Part shown: piece after piece, positions 28,400-40,632 of the stretch | Layout: each line of letters begins with the position of its first letter | Numbering within the stretch: the stretch's first letter is position 1 | Assembly (NCBI GenBank): GCA_013265495.1 | Contig: MU057981.1 | Location: forward strand, 124,001 to 188,000 | DNA from: Vicugna vicugna | Taxonomy: Eukaryota | Direction of reading: 5' to 3' | Length of the DNA: 64,000 nt | Translations under genes and position numbers: made by a program | The notes under the pieces: model-generated | The model's input: only the letters and a program-made list of their open reading frames with translations | The model's database searches: none | Told to the model about the DNA's origin: nothing

Positions 28400-30838
28400 A
28401 GAGGAGAGTTAGTTATCCTGGGCTAGAACCCAGTCCTTCACAAGTCCTTGTCCACCACCTGAGAGCACTGAATCCTCCTCCCAGGAATAGGCTGACATGA
28501 ATACACATTTCCAGTGAACCTGGGTCAGCAGAGGCTGCCCCCCAGGACAGGCCACAGGGAGATGGGAGCAAGTCCACCTTCTCCCCCAGGGCAACCCCCC
28601 TCACCTGGCCACCACTGCCCCCTGACAGCACCTTGCCCACCTCCCGGGAGCCAACTCACCTGGGAACAAGTGTCCCAGGAACCTGGGGCAGCGGTGGGGA
28701 GAGAGGAGCTGCCCCTGATAAACTGGTATATTTGTACGTATCTCCTCTGCAATATGGCCTGGGGGCGGCCTCTGCTGACCCAGCTTCCCGGGATGCCCAT
28801 CTCTTGATTTGCCTGCTCCTGGGAGGCAGGCGCAGTGCGTTCTGGGGGTAGCAGCAATGGTAAAGGGGGGAATGGGGCTGCCCCGTGTGAATACAGGGAT
28901 TTGTTCCCACTTCCCGCTGTCACTGCTGCTGCCCCCCCACAGACTGCACTGCGCCTGCCTCCCAGCAGCAGGCTGACCTGTAACCTGTATCCCACCAACC
29001 TGGGGCAGTAGAGGCCACCCTAGGCCAAGCCACACGGGAGATGGAAGCAAGTCCACCTGCTCCCCAGGGGCAGCTACCCTCCCACCACCGCCACAGCCAC
29101 CTTCCCAGCTGCTGCTGCTGCTGCTGCTGCTTCTGCTGCCCCCTAACAGTGCTGCGCCCACCTCCCAGGAGCCAACTCACCTGGAAGCAAGTGTCCCACA
29201 AACCTGGGGCAGCATTTGCCCCCATCTCCCCTGCATCATGGCCTGGGGGCAACTCCTGCTGCTCCAGCTTTGATGGAGGAACCTTCCCAGGTCAGCCTGC
29301 TCCTGGGAGGTGGCCATAGTGTGCTCAGGGAAGTGATGGCAGTGGGTTAGGGGGGCTGCCATGCGAGCCTTTGGATTTGCTTCAATCTCCCCAGCAGCCT
29401 ATCTCGGGGGCGGCCTCTGCTGCCCCAGATTTGCGGGATGCACGTCTTGGGAACTGCCTGCTCCTGGGAGGCAGGAGCGGTGCAGTCAAAGTGCAGAGGC
29501 TGCAGAAGGGACGACGACGACAGCTGCAGGGGAGGGGGAGATGCTCCGGAGAACCAGTCGAGTTGCTCCAATCTTCCCCACAGCCTGGCCTGGGGGCGGC
29601 CTCTGTTGCCTCAGCTTCCTGGAAGGCAGGTCTCCCTGTCAGCCTGCTGCCCGGAATCAGGCACGGTGCGGTCAGGGGGCAGCGGCAACAAGTGTAGGAG
29701 GGATGCCTCTGCGACCCTGTCCATTTGCTCCCATCTCCCTGTGGCCTGGCCTCGGGGCGGCTTCTGCTGCCCCAGGTTCAGGGGAATCAGGCTACATGAC
29801 AGTCGGCTCCTAGGAGGCTGGGCGGTGAGGTCAGGGGGCAGCAGTGTTTGTAGAGGCTGAGGGAGGGGGGACGCCCTTGGAAAGCTGGTCCACTTGCTCC
29901 CACCTCCCCCGCTGCCTGGCTTTGGGGTGGCCTCTGCTGCCCTAGCTTCTCGGAATGCAATTCTCCCTGTCAGCCTGATCTTGGGAGGCGGGTGCAGCGC
30001 GGTCAGGGGGTGGCAGCGGCGGTGTCATGACTGGGGCTGACCCCGTGAAAGCCTGGGGATTTGCTCCCATTTCCCGCTGCAGCCGCCCCCGCACACTGAC
30101 TGCACCGTGCCCGCCTCCCAGGAGCAGCATGACCTGTAACCTGCGTCCTGAGAACCTAGGACACCAGAGGCCAGCACCAGGCCAGGCTGCAGGGGAGATG
30201 GGAGCAAGCAGACCGGAGCGTCTTGGGCAGGCCCCCTACCCCCGCCGTCAATGCCGCAGCCACCCCCAGACCCCTGACAGCACAGCGCAGGTCTCCCGGG
30301 AGCAAGGTAACCCTAAGACGTGCATCAGGTGAACCTGGGTAAGCAGATGCCGCCCCCAGGCCAGGCCTCGGGAGAGATGCGAACACATCCAGTGGCTCAC
30401 ACCTGGCAGCCCCCCTCCCACCGCCGCCGCCTCTGCCCCCACCCCCTGACCACAGAGCACAAGGCTCCTGGGAGCTGGCTGACCTAGGGCTGTGCCTCCA
30501 GAGAACCTGGGGCAACAGAGGCCGCCCCCAGGCCAGGGCACAGGGAATTGGGAGCAAATCTCCCAGCTTGCAAATGGCAGCACCCTGTTATTCCCGCCTC
30601 GAAAGCTGCCACAGATTTCATCGTCCCCACTACTCCCTGACTGGACCACACAGGCCTTAAGGGAGCAGTCTGACCTAAAGAGGAACCCAGAGCAGCAGAG
30701 GCCGCCCCCAGGCCAGGCAGCAGGAGAGATGGGAGCAAGTAACTGGCTCCCAAGGGACAGCCCCCATCCCCTCGCTGCCACCGCCAAGGCCACGGCCTCT
30801 GCCATCTTCCCAGCCCCCTCGCCCCACTGCGCCCATGG
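28400..30838. repeat. GC-rich tandem array, ~170-180-bp monomer in alternating-orientation blocks
   Basis: Core tggcctgggggcggcctctgctgccccagg is forward at ~28756, 29240, 29405, 29587, 29747 and 29917, and reversed at ~28525, 29005, 30165, 30342, 30512 and 30692. Confidence 0.85.
29108..29139 (+). repeat. (CTG)n microsatellite within the GC-rich array
   Basis: gctgctgctgctgctgctgctgcttctgctgc. Confidence 0.9.
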
Positions 30839-33320: not shown

Positions 33321-34883
33321 CAGGATTTCCAGATCTCCATTTCCCAAGTGTGTTACTCCTCAAAGCAGACCCGTGACATGAGGCTGTCCTGTCTGCTAGC
33401 CTTTCATGGGGGCTTTTTTCCCACTCGAATAAAAGCACCACCAAATCATCTTAATCACATGCACTACACTGTCCCCACAATGTAAGGATAATTATCCAGT
33501 TTGAAATATGGATGTTGATATGGTGTAGTTAGTAAGTCTGATGAGCAGTAAATACTTTTGCAGATTAGGTGATTTCCATTTTTGTGCTTTTAGCAAAACT
33601 GAAGGGGGACCTAATGACATAGTTATCTGAACTTATAGTAAGAGTAGTAATGTATATTATCATTATCATTATATATTAATTATTTCTAAAATCACATAGC
33701 TATCACCAAAATAAAAAGGTATAATAGTAATAGTTTATTACTTTATAAATAATACTTTATTATTGTTTTTTTTTTGATGATAGGTCACTATGTGATTTTT
33801 TTCATCTCTGTCTTGGATGGGATATAGAAGAATTCTGTTACATTGCTATAAAATATCTCATTCTTGCCCTCTCTAGTTTTTATAAAAATCAGCTTTCTTA
33901 GCACCTATGTCTTTAAAAAGGAACACTGAAATACAATTTGATGTTGAACTACATCATTCCAGAAACGAGAAATAGTCATCCTGTGTGTGAACTAATTCTT
34001 AAAAAGTCTTGCCTATATATTCGGATGCATTTCAAATAAAATTTTACTTTCATGTTTAGTAAATTAACAAATTCATAATATATTTCATGTTTTGATCAAT
34101 GAAATGAAACTCAATCTAAGTAATTAATATAGGATTGTATTATTTAAAATTTAAAAATAAACTTAAGCACAATTTTTGTCGTAGAAACCTACCTAAAGAT
34201 ATAATATTAATACATGAGTAAAAATATTTGGGACAAATGGAATGTATGGTTTGAAGTTTAAAAATGAACAGTATGTAATCTCTGACTATTAAAAACATGC
34301 TCACTGATTTTCTTTAATGAATGATGGTGAGTTCAAATCACTATCACCTAAGATCTATTTAGTCAGAAAAGGAGAAATATGATTAAGTAATTGATAATGA
34401 AATATGCTGAACATTATACCTTAAGCTTATATTCAACAATTTTAGGTATCAATTAAAAATATACTAGTGAGTATTGCTTAAAAATTATCTTAGCTGTTAA
34501 GCAAGCAAGGATGTTTGAAAATCACTGGCTCGGGGATTGCAGGGTTTTTTATTTGGGTGTTTTATAATCACTTCTGGAAAAAGATATGCAGATGTGCTTC
34601 TTGATGTGAAAATTTGAATTTCATCTCTGTTTTGAGAGAAGGGATCCAGAAAGCACAGCAGTGAGAACAGCCATAAAAGCCTGGGAGAGATAAGTGACGC
34701 TGCTGTAATGGCACGTGTGCCGGGGCTGGAGGCCTCAAAAGCAGTGACTGGAGAGCATGGTGTTTACATTAAGTCTTTAATGATACAATCAGGGGCATAA
34801 GCATCCACTTTTATCAAATAACTATAAATTATGGAAACTATCATGACTATTTTATTAAAATGGGGAAAACTGAATAATATTAT

Positions 34884-35265
34884 TGTGAGCTGGTGTTGAG
34901 ATGAGTTAAGGCTGTGGGACCCAAGGCCACGACTACAGAGCATGTTTGTAGTATGCAGTAAATAATTGCTCCATGTATGCATCAATTATATAAGATTTAG
35001 AACAAAGAAAGTAGAAGTATGCATGTGCTAGAGATATTCTGTAAGCCTAAAGAGCAAAGAAATTCAGACCACGCATGTGCTGACAGAAAACAGATAAAAC
35101 AGGACAGGTGCATCATAGGCGCGCACCTCCCTGTGGCAATAAAGTGTTGTTAACCCCATGGTGTCTCTGGCTGAAGTCTGTCCAGCAGTATGGCAACTCC
35201 TCGTGCATTTTTTCATTTGGGCCGCTCACCTCCTAGAACCCCACATCAGCCTCCCTCGGCTGACA
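34884..35265 (+). repeat. 5' LTR (382 bp)
   Basis: tgtgagctgg...ggctgaca; AATAAA near 35138. Confidence 0.95.
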
Positions 35266-35267
35266 CT

Positions 35268-35285
35268 TGGCGTAGTCGGCAGGAT
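35268..35285 (+). other. Primer-binding site, tRNA-Ser
   Basis: TGGCGTAGTCGGCAGGAT is complementary over 18/18 nt to the 3' end of vertebrate tRNA-Ser (ATCCTGCCGACTACGCCA). Confidence 0.92.
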
Positions 35286-35333
35286 GAGGTGAGTGCCCCT
35301 ACTGAAACCCCTGCCCCTGACGGGGATGCTCTG

Positions 35334-35822
35334 ATGGAAGCAAAGTGGCCCCCTACCTCTGTATGGTACCCGGTGGCAGCCTATTTGCTGACGTGGGCTC
35401 AACCTGAGGATTGGGATACAGTGGCGCCCCGGCCAGATGACGTCCGGAGGGCATTGGAGCTGTTAGAAAATAATGTCCCATTAGCCCACCGAGAGGCAGC
35501 CGGGAGGGTGGCCTAGATGTTCTTATCTGTTTTACGGCATGCTAGCCAAGACATGAGAGATTTACAGATGCAAGTGGAGGAGTTGCAGTGCAAAGAAGAG
35601 GAGCTTAAGCAGAGACCCAGCATAACAGAAAGATGTCTGCGTGGTCCTCACTCTGCCACCTCTGAGAGCAGCTATGCCTGTATAGCTCTGGTCCCACTGC
35701 CCCTGGGAGCGGTAAGCCCAACACCTCCCCCCATTCCACTGTGTCTACAGCCCGTGGTGAGACAGCAGATGGAAATGGAGGAGCCCATGGCTCAGGGGGG
35801 AATTCCTGCAGGGCCACGGTGA
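35334..35822 (+). pseudogene. gag: ERV gag N-terminal remnant
   Basis: VWYPVAAYLLTWAQPEDW...AGRVA*MFLSVLR resembles HERV-S gag; TAG at 35514 where Trp is expected; abuts RT with no capsid or protease. Confidence 0.75.
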
Positions 35823-35824
35823 GT

Positions 35825-38590
35825 GACACGACATTCCATCCCCCATACATGCCACGGTGCCAAATATAACAAATTTGATAGACCGACTGTCCTATAAACT
35901 GGGTACTTGTCACTATGTGGTTAACCTAACTAATACATTCTTCTCAATAAACATAGCCCCTGAGAGCCAAAAACAGTTTGCCTTCACCTAGAAAGGCAGA
36001 AAATAAACATTTGTTATGTTGCCACAAAAATATCTACACAGCCCTACACTATGTCATGGCCTGGTGGCCCAGGACCTGGCTACATGGAACAAACCAAATA
36101 CCATCCACTTGTTCCATTATATTAATGACATAATGCTAACCTCTGATTCTCTTTCAAATTTAGAAACCAGTGCCACAGCACTGCAAAAAGCCCTGGAGGG
36201 CTAGAGGTGGGCTGTAAACGAGGACAAAGTACAAGGACCTGGATATTCTGTCCAATTCTTGGATGTTATCTGGTCGGGTAAGACAAAAGTACTACCTAAA
36301 ACAGTAATAGACAAAATCCAGACATATTCCCGCCCTAAAACAGTTAAACAGTTACAGACTTATTTAGGTCTTCTAAAATACTGGCGGATATTTATTCCTC
36401 ATTTGGCCCAAAAGCCAAACCCCTGTATAAACTAATTAAAAAAAAAAGTCTAAAATTGGTCTAATGAGACCAAATATACATTTGTTAAAACTAAGAGAAC
36501 AGTGGCCCAAGCACAAGCACAAGCACTATAGATCCAGAAATCCCTTTCTGGTTAACAGTCCATGTAAACAATGATAGATATGGCTGAGACTTATAACAAA
36601 AACATGAACAGCAAAAAGTGCCCATAAAATTCTGGTCTCAGTTGTAAAAAGGGGCTAAATATCGTTGTTCTCTGATTAAAAAACAGTTGCTAGCAACTTA
36701 TACATCCTTGATTGCCACTAAACCCCTAACGGAGAGACAAGAGATCCAAGTACAGACCACATACCCTATTACAGGATAGATACAGACATGGAGAAAACAA
36801 CCCCGATCAAAAACTGCCCAAACCCCAACTCTAACGAAGTGGGGTGCTTATTTAAAACAGCGAGCCCAGTACACCGTTAGCCCCTTAACTACAGAGTTGC
36901 AACAGATATTAGGGCCTGTAAAATTTGTTGCGCCTGATGTACAGATACTCCCACAACAAGGGGTGGACCCTATACCCAGTCCCTTTTGTAAAAAAAAAGG
37001 GCCACCCCCAAAAACTACTTAATATACTGATAAATTGTAAGGGCAGTCCGCCCACTTGGGTTGCAGTAGCACTGCACCCTGCCACTAAAGCCTTCTGATA
37101 TGAGACCAGAAAAGGCCAATCCAGCCAATGGGCTAAGTTATAGACAGTATGGCTGATGTTGATAAATAAACCTAGCCCCTTACAAATTTATACAGATAGT
37201 TGGGCCATATATCGAGGCCTTACATTGTGGATACCCCAATGGGCCCTACAAGACTAAATAATTGGACACCGACCCCTGTGGAGACAACAGATGTAAAAAC
37301 AGTTATAAAACAAAGGCCAAAAAGGCCAATATACTGTTTACCACGTACTAGGGCAGCGCCCAGCCCTGGCACCAGACAATGATGCTGCTGATGTGCTAGC
37401 CCAACTCTGCCCTGTACAGGCTATGGTCCCAGGACCTGATATAGGTCCCTGGCTCCATAAAAAACTTGGTCATGTTAGCTCATACACAATGAGACAGGTA
37501 GCCGACTAGTGGGGCCTACTCCTGAACCACAGTAAAGCCAAAGATGCCATGCGGCAATGTCCATGGTGTGCTAAACCCCACCCGCACCGGCGGCGATGGC
37601 CCCAACAGATAAAAAAGATTGCACGAAAAATTCAGCCATTACAGTATGACAAATAGGTTACGTAGGCCCCTTTGCTCCAAGTACAGGCTTGCGGTACCTG
37701 CTGACAGCGGTAGACACCGCGACTGGTCTAGGTTTTGCTCACCATGTGCCCCAAGCTACACAAGACTCTACTATTAAAACACTAAAAGTTTTACAGACCT
37801 TCTATGGGACTCCCTTAAAAATACAAAGTAATAGAGGGACCCCTTTCACTGCCCAACAGACCCAAAAATGGGCCAAAAAAATAATATTAACTAGATATTA
37901 CATGTGCCTTACCGTCCTCAAACAGCAAAAATGATTAAATGGTACAATGACCTATTAAAGAACAAACTGAGGGCTCTCAAACCACAAGGGCGAGACTAAA
38001 ACAATGTCTTGCCACAGGCGATACGTCTTTTAAATAAACAACCTCGCCGTATGGGTATGAGCCCACTAAAAAAGTTATTACAAGAGACTATTCAGAGACC
38101 CAGAGTTGGGCCCGTACAGGATGCCTCCAATGTCTCAATAGTGGGACATGCATTAATATTACGTGCCCCCAGAATGTTAAACTCAAAAAAACAAGACACC
38201 TGGACATAAAAAAAATCAGGTCCAGACTAAAGGCCCCTGACTAGCCCTTTTAAAACCATGGGACAATGGGCTAGAAAAAGCCCTACAGGTAACCCCACGA
38301 GTGGGGAAATAGCCTTTTAATGTACAGGTTAAAAAACAAAAATGTCCCTACTTAAAAAAACAAAAGCCCTACGGCTTTGGACAATTCCACTAATAGCTCC
38401 TAAAGCTCTCCCAGAGTGTAACCAACCTAATGTGGGCGGGTTGTTATGGTACCACCGCCCAGGGCGAACAGCCCTTCCTGCCACTGTACTCTCACAAAAT
38501 AAAAAAGTGGCTTACATCCTCCCCAAAAAAAAAAAAAAAGATTTGCCAATCATGATGTCCACCTCTACTCTGTCCTTCCGTCCAGGGTAA
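35825..38590 (+). pseudogene. pol: ERV pol remnant (RT, RNase H, integrase, C-terminal extension)
   Basis: LPQKYLHSP (LPQG), HYIND (YIDD) at 36118-36129, *YTDK (WYTDG) at ~37020, HHCC zinc finger at 37450-37570, YLLTAVDTATG and IQSNRGTPF. Confidence 0.9.
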
Positions 38591-39735
38591 CAACAAATAC
38601 CATGTTCTCCTGAACACACACATTCGCGCAAGTCCACAATGTCTCTCACTGTTGGGTCTGTACTAAACTTCCTAGACGCAAAAGATGGACTGCCGTGGCA
38701 CCTCCACCCCGCGTCCAGAGCTAATTAGAGCACCTTGATTCAATAAAATGCCAACAGGACAGCAAGATCGCCCTGGGACTTGCGGCGACAGACTATTAAA
38801 AAAATACTCCAACGTGAGTGGGCAATGCCCCCCCTTATTAAAAAAACTATATAAAATAAGTAAAAATAGATAAATAATGTTCATATAAAAATAAAAAAAT
38901 TTAAGCCCACTCTATATTAAACAGTGGTTTGAACACGAGGCCCCAAACCGCACAATGGGGTGGCTCACAAAAGAGCTATGTACCAAAATTACTTATAATG
39001 TAAATGCCTCCACCTGATAAAATAAATGACCTCTAATTAACACAAAACCCACTGATTTCCTGCCACCAGGATATCTGTGGGCATATAACACCCACAGATG
39101 GTCGTATCTCCCAGCTAAATGGACAGGGTGCTGTACTTGGGGTAGAGCTTAATTGTCCGGACATACCCAAGCCCACTTTAACAGAGTGCCCCACAAATTG
39201 GGACCCACTGCACACCCGATGGCACCGGGAAAAGCGTACAGCTTGGTGGTTTTATCCTATGGCTCTGTTCCTGCCTGGTACTGGGACCATCAATGTTAAA
39301 TTACAGATAAAAGCTTTAGCTCAACACATATCAGCTGTACTAAATGTTACTAAAAGAGCTATAAAAAATTTGTTAAACAAGACTACCCAGATACAAAAGG
39401 TAGTCTTACAAAATAAAATGACATTAGATATTCTCACTAAAAGCCAAAATGACACATATACTATATTACATATTAAATGTTGTATCTATATACCAAATCA
39501 CCAAAAAAAGTAGCTAAAACACTACATAAAATAAATCAAAAATTAAATCACATAAATCACGTAACTCAAAAGCCCCTTAAAAATTAATGGTCATCCTTGA
39601 CGTCCTCCTAAAAATAGAGCCTAACTGTCCTGGCTATTGTTGCTGTTTGTGTATTAGTAAAATACTGTACTTTATATTGTTATTGTGGTCTTTGGACACA
39701 ATACTCAGCCCTGTGGGCTAGGGTTCCCATGACCT
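38550..39735 (+). pseudogene. env: ERV env remnant, gamma-type
   Basis: CWVC at 38650-38661, furin site REKR at 39226-39237, hydrophobic fusion peptide, ISD-like LQNKMTLDIL, decayed CX6CC, TM anchor at ~39620-39690. Confidence 0.88.
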
Positions 39736-39746
39736 AGGGGGTGGAA

Positions 39747-40168
39747 TGTGAGCTGGTGTTGAGATGAGTTAAGGCCGTGGGACCCAAGGCCACAATCGGA
39801 GCACTGAGATGAGTTAAGGCTGTGGGACCCAAGGCCACGACTACAGAGCATGTTTGTAGTATGCAGTAAATAATTGCTCCATGTATGCGTCAATTATATA
39901 AGATTTAGAACAAAGAAAGTAGAAGTACGCATGTGCTAGAGATATTCTGTAAGCCTAAAGAGCAAAGAAATTCAGACCACGCATGTGCTGACAGAAAACA
40001 GATAAAACAGGACAGGTGCATCATAGGCGCGCACCTCCCTGTGGCAATAAAATGTTGTTAACGGTGTCTCTGGCTGAAGTCTGTCCAGCAGTATGGCAAC
40101 TCCTCGTGCATTTTTTCGTTTGGGCCACTCACCTCCTAGAACCCCACATCAGCCTCCTTTGGCTAACA
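39747..40168 (+). repeat. 3' LTR (422 bp)
   Basis: Preceded by a purine tract (agggggtggaa); has an extra 45-bp unit and a 5-bp deletion relative to the 5' LTR. Confidence 0.95.
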
Positions 40169-40443
40169 ATTATTTTATATATTATTCAGAATTTAAACAA
40201 TAATAACCACAAATATTTGCTAAACACTTGTTTAAGTACATAATTATATGCAGTTTGACTTGTGTGGATTTAGGGAATGTTATTAACAAAAATTTGCTCT
40301 TCACAATGTGGTGAAATCACACAGCCCACGTGCTTCCAACGGGTCAGCATACCGAGCCCCAATTTAATTGATATGTTACTGGCACATACTTTCAGTTTTC
40401 TCATAGACATGTGAATAATTTAAATACTTCTTTCTTGTTTTAG

Positions 40444-40632
40444 GCAATTCAAACCAACCTACAGAAGTGACAGCACTATATTTCTTTGAAGGACAACAAC
40501 CAGGAGATGAATTTTCAAGCTGGAGACAGAATCACAGTTATATCAAAAACAGACTTGTGTTTTGATTGGTGGGAAGGAAAGCTCTGAGGTCAAACCGACA
40601 TTTTTCCAGCCAACTCTGTTACCATGAATTAA
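40444..40632 (+). pseudogene. SH3YL1: Unprocessed last coding exon (SH3 domain) of SH3YL1, disabled
   Basis: Acceptor tttcttgttttag; NQPTEVTALYFFEGQQPGD / NFQAGDRITVISKTD..FDWWEGKL*GQTDIFPANSVTMN*; frameshift after GD and in-frame TGA; followed by AT-rich 3'UTR-like DNA. Confidence 0.92.

Follow-up and report, generated by a model that had tools for sequence, protein, structure and literature searches.

Editing of endogenous retroviruses (ERVs) by APOBEC enzymes before integration is established (PMC2041998; PMC4866542; PMC6955324). Among the closest described cases are the polytropic murine leukemia viruses (MLVs) Pmv4 and Mpmv5, which were edited by mA3 at minus-strand TTC and display a 5′–3′ gradient of changes (Jern et al. 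2007, PMC2041998). A vertebrate survey (Knisbacher and Levanon 2016, PMC4866542) defines an ultra-edited element by at least 25 G-to-A changes that make up the majority of its mismatches, and reports a GxA motif in the ERVs of cow, rhino and rodents. Its main text mentions neither camel nor alpaca; camelid genomes are included in the genome-wide strand-bias score of PMC6955324. The minus-strand target of artiodactyl A3Z2-Z3 proteins preferably has T at position −2, the preference at −1 is broad, and the pig enzyme favours GC (PMC1636497). Read-through yields a Z2-Z3 protein, cytoplasmic in location, in sheep, cattle and pig (PMC2612020). Literature searches on APOBEC3 and camelid ERVs, which covered journals other than subscription journals, gave no description of editing in the ERV-S-like family treated here, and the word APOBEC is absent from the consulted text of PMC8605555.

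The phenomenon and its mechanism are textbook knowledge, and the locus described here is a new, unusually heavily edited example. It lies in a 64,000 nucleotide stretch of the Vicugna vicugna genome (the window; contig MU057981.1, positions 124,001–188,000 of the forward strand). In all likelihood it is an env-bearing ERV primed by tRNA-Ser that took up approximately 310–350 sense-strand G-to-A changes in one round of reverse transcription, when a host deaminase (probably A3 Z2-Z3) acted on single-stranded minus DNA, and that integrated dead and later sustained a deletion. The resemblance to Pmv4 and Mpmv5 extends to strand-specific G-to-A changes, a TTC optimum, nonsense changes, editing just before integration and, when the longer edited siblings are pooled, a 5′–3′ gradient across the group. 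Unlike these mouse gammaretroviruses, the window provirus is a camelid element that fits class III and is ERV-S-like, TGC is nearly as good a target as TCC, and editing shows a step at the deletion (compared with PMC2041998).

Structure of the provirus and its family

The sequence at 34884–40168 (+ strand) is a single provirus with TG...CA ends, a pair of LTRs and the 5-bp target duplication ATTAT. Its features are the following.

34879..34883, + strand: left target-site duplication ATTAT, identical to the 5 bases at 40169–40173
34884..35265, + strand: 5′ LTR, TG...CA, unedited (G-to-A 0/66; 8/377 differences from the 3′ LTR)
35268..35285, + strand: primer-binding site, tRNA-Ser(AGA), whose complement is matched in tRNA-Ser(AGA) genes
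35287..35835, + strand: 5′ part of gag, nearly unedited (G-to-A 4/139), alignable to other copies
35830..35850, + strand: junction of an internal deletion of 1.2–1.5 kb that took out 3′ gag, protease and the beginning of RT, placed by alignment to copies L014 and L018
35840..38590, + strand: hypermutated pol with RT, RNase H-like connection, RNase H and integrase, placed by Pfam
38600..39738 (start approximate), + strand: hypermutated env with a broken immunosuppressive-domain motif (Pfam TLV_coat, 2e-5)
39736..39746, + strand: polypurine tract, spared (G-to-A 0/4 in 39730–39746)
39747..40168, + strand: 3′ LTR, unedited (G-to-A 1/67), 45 bases longer near its start when aligned to the 5′ LTR
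40169..40173, + strand: right target-site duplication ATTAT, same as the left

The close match of the two LTRs had been noticed in an earlier reading of the sequence alone, and the 8 differences amount to 2.1% of the aligned bases, five of them being at CpG. This divergence corresponds to an age of 2.1 My (0.9–4.2) at the rate of PMC8605555 and of 4.8 My (2.1–9.5) at a slower rate. Integration would thus date from roughly 2–5 million years ago. The 45 bases at 39760–39804 of the 3′ LTR, which have no counterpart in the 5′ LTR, are flanked by short direct repeats.

The deletion comprises 1202 bases relative to L014 and 1485 relative to L018. About 10 bases at its junction are compatible with both sides, and contigs from sequencing runs span the junction in at least two of four runs.

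With stops read as X, pol is matched by the Pfam families RVT_1 (4e-10), RT_RNaseH (3e-8), RNase_H (5e-6) and rve (1e-8). Pfam gave no family for gag, for the 3′ end of pol or for the SU part of env. A dUTPase match is absent from the three window frames and from the six frames of two less edited copies. The best PDB matches are a foamy-type RT at 53.3 bits and an MLV-type RT at 53.0 bits, and the search does not tell class I and class III apart.

HERVS-like viruses have a Ser primer site and a 5-bp target duplication. In the camelid family, 5-bp target duplications are found in all seven other copies with both ends mapped. The pattern of the complement of the primer-binding site has 11 matches in the host genome, and the four that were scanned are all tRNA-Ser(AGA) genes. 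Judged by its sequence, with a tRNA-Ser primer site, an env, no dUTPase and a 5-bp duplication, the window provirus fits an ERV-S-like element of class III. The class III elements HERVS/HERV18 likewise have env and are without dUTPase at the end of pol (PMC4724089). LTR pairs of human class III elements are 13–42% divergent (PMC4724089), whereas those of 18 camelid family copies (L011–L043) are 1.0–12.6% divergent. Thus the camelid ERV-S-like family was active much later than human class III elements. It is a long-lived, env-bearing and probably class III family, far younger than human HERVS, and the locus adds a young ERV-S-like family to the record.

Strand-specific G-to-A changes

A search of the host genome gave 45 matches, and 39 non-self loci were fetched as comparison copies. 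G-to-A changes outnumber both C-to-T and A-to-G changes in all 39 pairwise alignments; against L014 the counts are 389, 38 and 27, respectively. When seven single copies are each taken as the reference, the 347–389 G-to-A changes form 63–70% of the mismatches in every one, which places the window provirus among ultra-edited elements as defined in PMC4866542. The net load (G-to-A minus C-to-T) against these seven copies is 310–351. The highest values in the survey are 353, for a zebra finch ERVL, and 234 among primates and rodents (PMC4866542), however counting methods differ and “near record” is therefore approximate.

For a stricter count the reference state was taken only at sites where two real copies (L014 and L018) agree. 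Here G-to-A is found at 331/1079 sites, C-to-T at 21/960, A-to-G at 5/1012 and T-to-C at 5/938. Outside of CpG the values are 308/997 for G-to-A versus 10/877 for C-to-T (Fisher p = 1e-80), and in the same comparison p ranges from 1e-54 to 1e-77 with three further pairs of reference copies. Changes at CpG sites are roughly strand-symmetric (G-to-A 16/54, C-to-T 10/54) and are the ordinary ageing signal.

The sequence-only reading had proposed hypermutation from conserved motifs broken by G-to-A changes, and these are present: YIND at 36118–36129, FT*KGRK* from 35983, LPQK at 36019 and *YTDK at 37020, to which the integrase frame adds SNRG, and env adds LQNKMTLD. The long A-runs it had pointed to are located at 36438–36447, 36990–36998 and 38525–38539, with one more at 38208–38215. 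The aligned stretches hold one to five G each in all five copies checked. Two findings had been named beforehand as contrary to editing, namely a family that is itself A-rich at these sites, and substitutions that are strand-symmetric and confined to CpG. Neither was found; sibling copies have G, and the changes are strand-asymmetric and lie for the most part outside of CpG.

The same data bear on the explanation that the pattern reflects ordinary mutation since the virus integrated, or an A-richness of the whole family, or errors of sequencing or assembly. CpG decay is present, in the roughly symmetric form given above. However the non-CpG asymmetry at sites agreed by two copies shows that the family is not A-rich and that CpG decay is insufficient, and the LTRs differ by a small percentage. 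As to an artefact, at least half of the words of 35900–39700 are found in 20 of 24 sequencing runs, from 7 studies and under four organism labels, and the edited allele is therefore not an assembly artefact, although the assembly may have been built from one of the 20 runs. In all four runs that were examined, contigs of 300–513 bases match the edited allele, mostly with 0–2 other letters. In runs X21–X24 hardly any of the words are present, but this says nothing on absence. This group of explanations, ruled out by the G in siblings, the non-CpG asymmetry and the 20 runs, is given practically no probability.

In pol and env about one third of G has changed (304/860), on one strand only, and the 5′ part of gag is lightly hit, as had been claimed. 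Base composition follows this, with G at 15–21% and A at 32–36% in 35830–39735 versus G at 30% in 5′ gag. Per 300-bp bin, G-to-A changes amount to 21–45% in pol and 26–53% in env, with a peak near the 3′ end. The final 300 bp before the polypurine tract have 34/64, and positions 39440–39539 have 14/19.

A gradient from the primer-binding site to the polypurine tract had been suggested as a check. The window copy does not show it. There is no positional trend inside its pol-env region (rho = 0.056, p = 0.10; p = 0.32 with context included), and editing rises in a step across 35830–35850, from 4/78 before to 20/59 after (p = 2e-5). The gradient is present in four longer edited siblings when these are pooled, as a 5′–3′ rise of edited GAA (rho = 0.22, p = 1e-4) that passes through the region deleted from the window copy. 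Taken singly, L011 and L019 show a significant rise, L037 a borderline one and L016 none; three unedited control copies are flat in the same test. The missing gradient in the window pol-env region, and its significance singly in only two of the four siblings, stand against the favoured account of editing by a host deaminase during reverse transcription.

The spared LTRs and polypurine tract, together with the 5′–3′ rise in siblings, agree with an attack on minus DNA while it was single-stranded in reverse transcription, and support the earlier proposal that the virus was edited at that stage and integrated dead. C-to-U deamination would have occurred on the minus strand before plus-strand synthesis fixed the changes, likely within one round of reverse transcription. 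The edited DNA would then have integrated normally, with TG...CA ends and a 5-bp duplication, yet dead. The deletion appears to postdate editing. It may have occurred at or after plus-strand synthesis, and would have taken out the ramp that led from unedited gag up to edited pol.

Target context and the probable deaminase

Editing differs strongly by trinucleotide, the context being that of the reference copy. Contexts with A at +2 are GAA at 61/64 (95%), GGA at 45/61 (74%), GCA at 41/58 (71%) and GTA at 10/33. The others are GAT 22/51, GAG 12/34 and GAC 8/42 (19%); GTG 18/52, GTC 3/25 and GTT 3/39; GCT 12/45, GCC 5/56 and GCG 1/11; and GGG 16/66, GGT 6/44 and GGC 9/70. The best minus-strand motif is TTC, followed by TCC and TGC. 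This is a near-saturated in vivo target table of 16 contexts for a camelid cytosine deaminase and therefore predicts in concrete terms what camelid A3Z1, Z2, Z3 and Z2-Z3 should show.

A logistic context model (564 sites, 207 edited) gives likelihood-ratio values of 157 for position +2 (p = 7e-34), 34 for +1, 25 for +3 and 11 for −1; positions −2, −3, +4 and +5 add nothing. GNA is edited at 125/166 sites versus 82/398 elsewhere. Sites with A at +2 and without A at +1 are edited at 69/108, and GA followed by a base other than A at just 32/103. The main determinant is thus A at +2 (plus-strand GxA, minus-strand T-x-C), and the GA dinucleotide is ruled out as the target. Of the earlier description of targets as mainly GA and GGA with some GC, the use of GGA and GC holds, and GA as determinant does not. 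The survival of TGG before T, also described, is borne out: 3/15 TGGT were turned to a stop-type triplet, versus 21/25 TGGA. The weight of +2, +1 and −1, with A at +2 as the motif, is shared with the ultra-edited ERVs of PMC4866542. Part of the GG signal may come from creep along G runs, since GG beside an unedited neighbour is edited at only 18/169.

G-to-A slippage next to A when dCTP is low is a known error mechanism of RT, and it could in principle produce such changes with no deaminase. GAA is indeed the top target, and long A-runs were formed. Slippage requires A at +1, however, and the dependence of editing on +2 largely refutes it. Nor would a nucleotide-pool effect leave the LTRs and 5′ gag untouched. 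Slippage is considered extremely improbable.

The APOBEC2 exon of the host genome agrees with the Vicugna row of Dataset S3 of PMC6955324, and not with the Camelus row, at the four differing sites compared by eye, which supports a South American camelid as host. The genome has intact-looking catalytic exons of A3 Z1, Z2 and Z3, in this order, on contig C3401. The Z2 and Z3 exons are 6.8 kb apart, and the domain labels agree with Dataset S3 of PMC6955324. Between the A3Z1 and A3Z2 exons (C3401:191755–191901) there is a deaminase-like stretch, interrupted by two stops, that may be the remnant of an additional Z domain. The Z1-Z2-Z3 arrangement is like that of cow, sheep and pig, in which A3Z2-Z3 is a cytoplasmic double-domain enzyme (LaRue et al. 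2008, PMC2612020). The camelid footprint, with T at −2 and a broad preference at −1, is also like that of the cow, sheep and pig A3Z2-Z3 proteins, termed A3F (Jonsson et al. 2006, PMC1636497; PMC2612020). The cow and sheep enzymes prefer pyrimidine-C and the pig enzyme GC, while the camelid footprint ranks TC first and takes CC and GC if T is at −2 (PMC1636497). By analogy a camelid Z2-Z3 read-through protein may be expected, and the deaminase is probably APOBEC3 of this double-domain Z2-Z3 type. The assignment is by analogy because the literature searches, subscription journals apart, found no assay or specificity of a camelid A3. The provirus shows that the editing load which a three-gene A3 locus puts on a virus, here a probable class III one, can match that of the top elements of the vertebrate survey.

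Genes for AID and APOBEC1 are both present in the host genome, on contig C4372, and either enzyme could be proposed as the deaminase with the same timing and mechanism. GCA is heavily edited, and purine-C is an AID-like preference. The AID hotspot on the plus strand is GYW. This hotspot is not enriched, with 41/120 edited, no more than the average of 207/564, and GAA is edited almost throughout. RNA editing by APOBEC1 would add plus-strand C-to-T changes, and no such excess is found (10/877). The mouse study did not exclude APOBEC1 for its proviruses (PMC2041998). For the window provirus, AID or APOBEC1 is judged very unlikely, and APOBEC3 is retained.

Edited sibling copies and the insertion site

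For each reference pair, 37 sibling copies were tested for editing. Clear editing is seen in L011, L016, L019 and L037 (p ≤ 4e-6), with GAA leading and at a lower dose than the window copy; GAA is edited at 25/55, 22/57, 46/64 and 23/33, respectively. L015 and L044 display some G-to-A excess without GAA enrichment (L015 6/64, 4/67) and were rejected as edited copies. The five edited copies can all be described by a single context profile, each with its own dose (LRT 19.1, 15 df, p = 0.21). An own profile for the window copy is thus unneeded overall.

Two enzymes or two rounds of editing may also be considered. Either a lightly edited parent, common with L011, was recopied and hit hard, or a TTC-specific A3 was accompanied by a GC-tolerant one. 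As to two enzymes, GC contexts in the window copy are edited at 2.0-fold the rate of its siblings (one of four post-hoc tests, p = 0.02). A second enzyme would account for this; the single profile that fits overall speaks against it. As to two rounds, the window copy pairs with L011 as its sister once A/G differences are left out (bootstrap 77/100), and they share 38–47 edits versus 30–39 expected under finer stratification (p = 0.002–0.004), an excess of 7–11. However a similar excess is found in pairs that are not sisters (window copy and L019, p = 0.007–0.08; L011 and L019, p = 0.006–0.10), and other derived changes common to the window copy and L011 number only 1–5. Independent events at common, unmodelled hotspots are therefore simpler, and inheritance of edits from a parent common with L011 is not established. 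Two enzymes or two rounds are compatible with APOBEC3 rather than opposed to it, and are thought unlikely. L011 has private A-to-G changes (8–9) in excess of T-to-C (1–2), although the numbers are small.

The edited copies range from 1% to 11% in LTR divergence. It is possible, though doubtful, that this late-active South American camelid ERV-S family logs one stable deaminase specificity over its whole history, set by the −2 base with TGC accepted nearly as well as TCC, and so records an uncharacterised camelid A3 between the cow and pig enzymes. The window copy, among the most edited mammalian proviruses on record, may on the same reading also log a second GC-tolerant enzyme or serial rounds.

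Contigs from two runs (X1 and X6) join the flanks at 34878 and 40169 without the provirus, i.e. they display an empty site. Their 5′ flanks depart from the window sequence at 5/229 and 12/223 positions. The insertion site (34300–34883 and 40169–40480) is in an old segmental duplication with four paralogs (C2665, C5737, C3267 and C391) of 79–92% identity. Because the locus sits in this duplicated block, the empty site may represent an unfixed insertion allele or a younger paralog missing from the assembly. The two flanks are adjacent in all four paralogs, and the window copy is without approximately 4.3–5.4 kb near 34590 that the paralogs hold.

By eye, the downstream flank beyond about 40440 looks like the frameshifted last exon of an SH3-domain gene, which may resemble SH3YL1. 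If so, the duplicated block would be a pseudogene. Elsewhere in the window, positions 28450–30740 are a GC-rich array of diverged repeats of 160–190 bp, and this array adjoins L1-like sequence.
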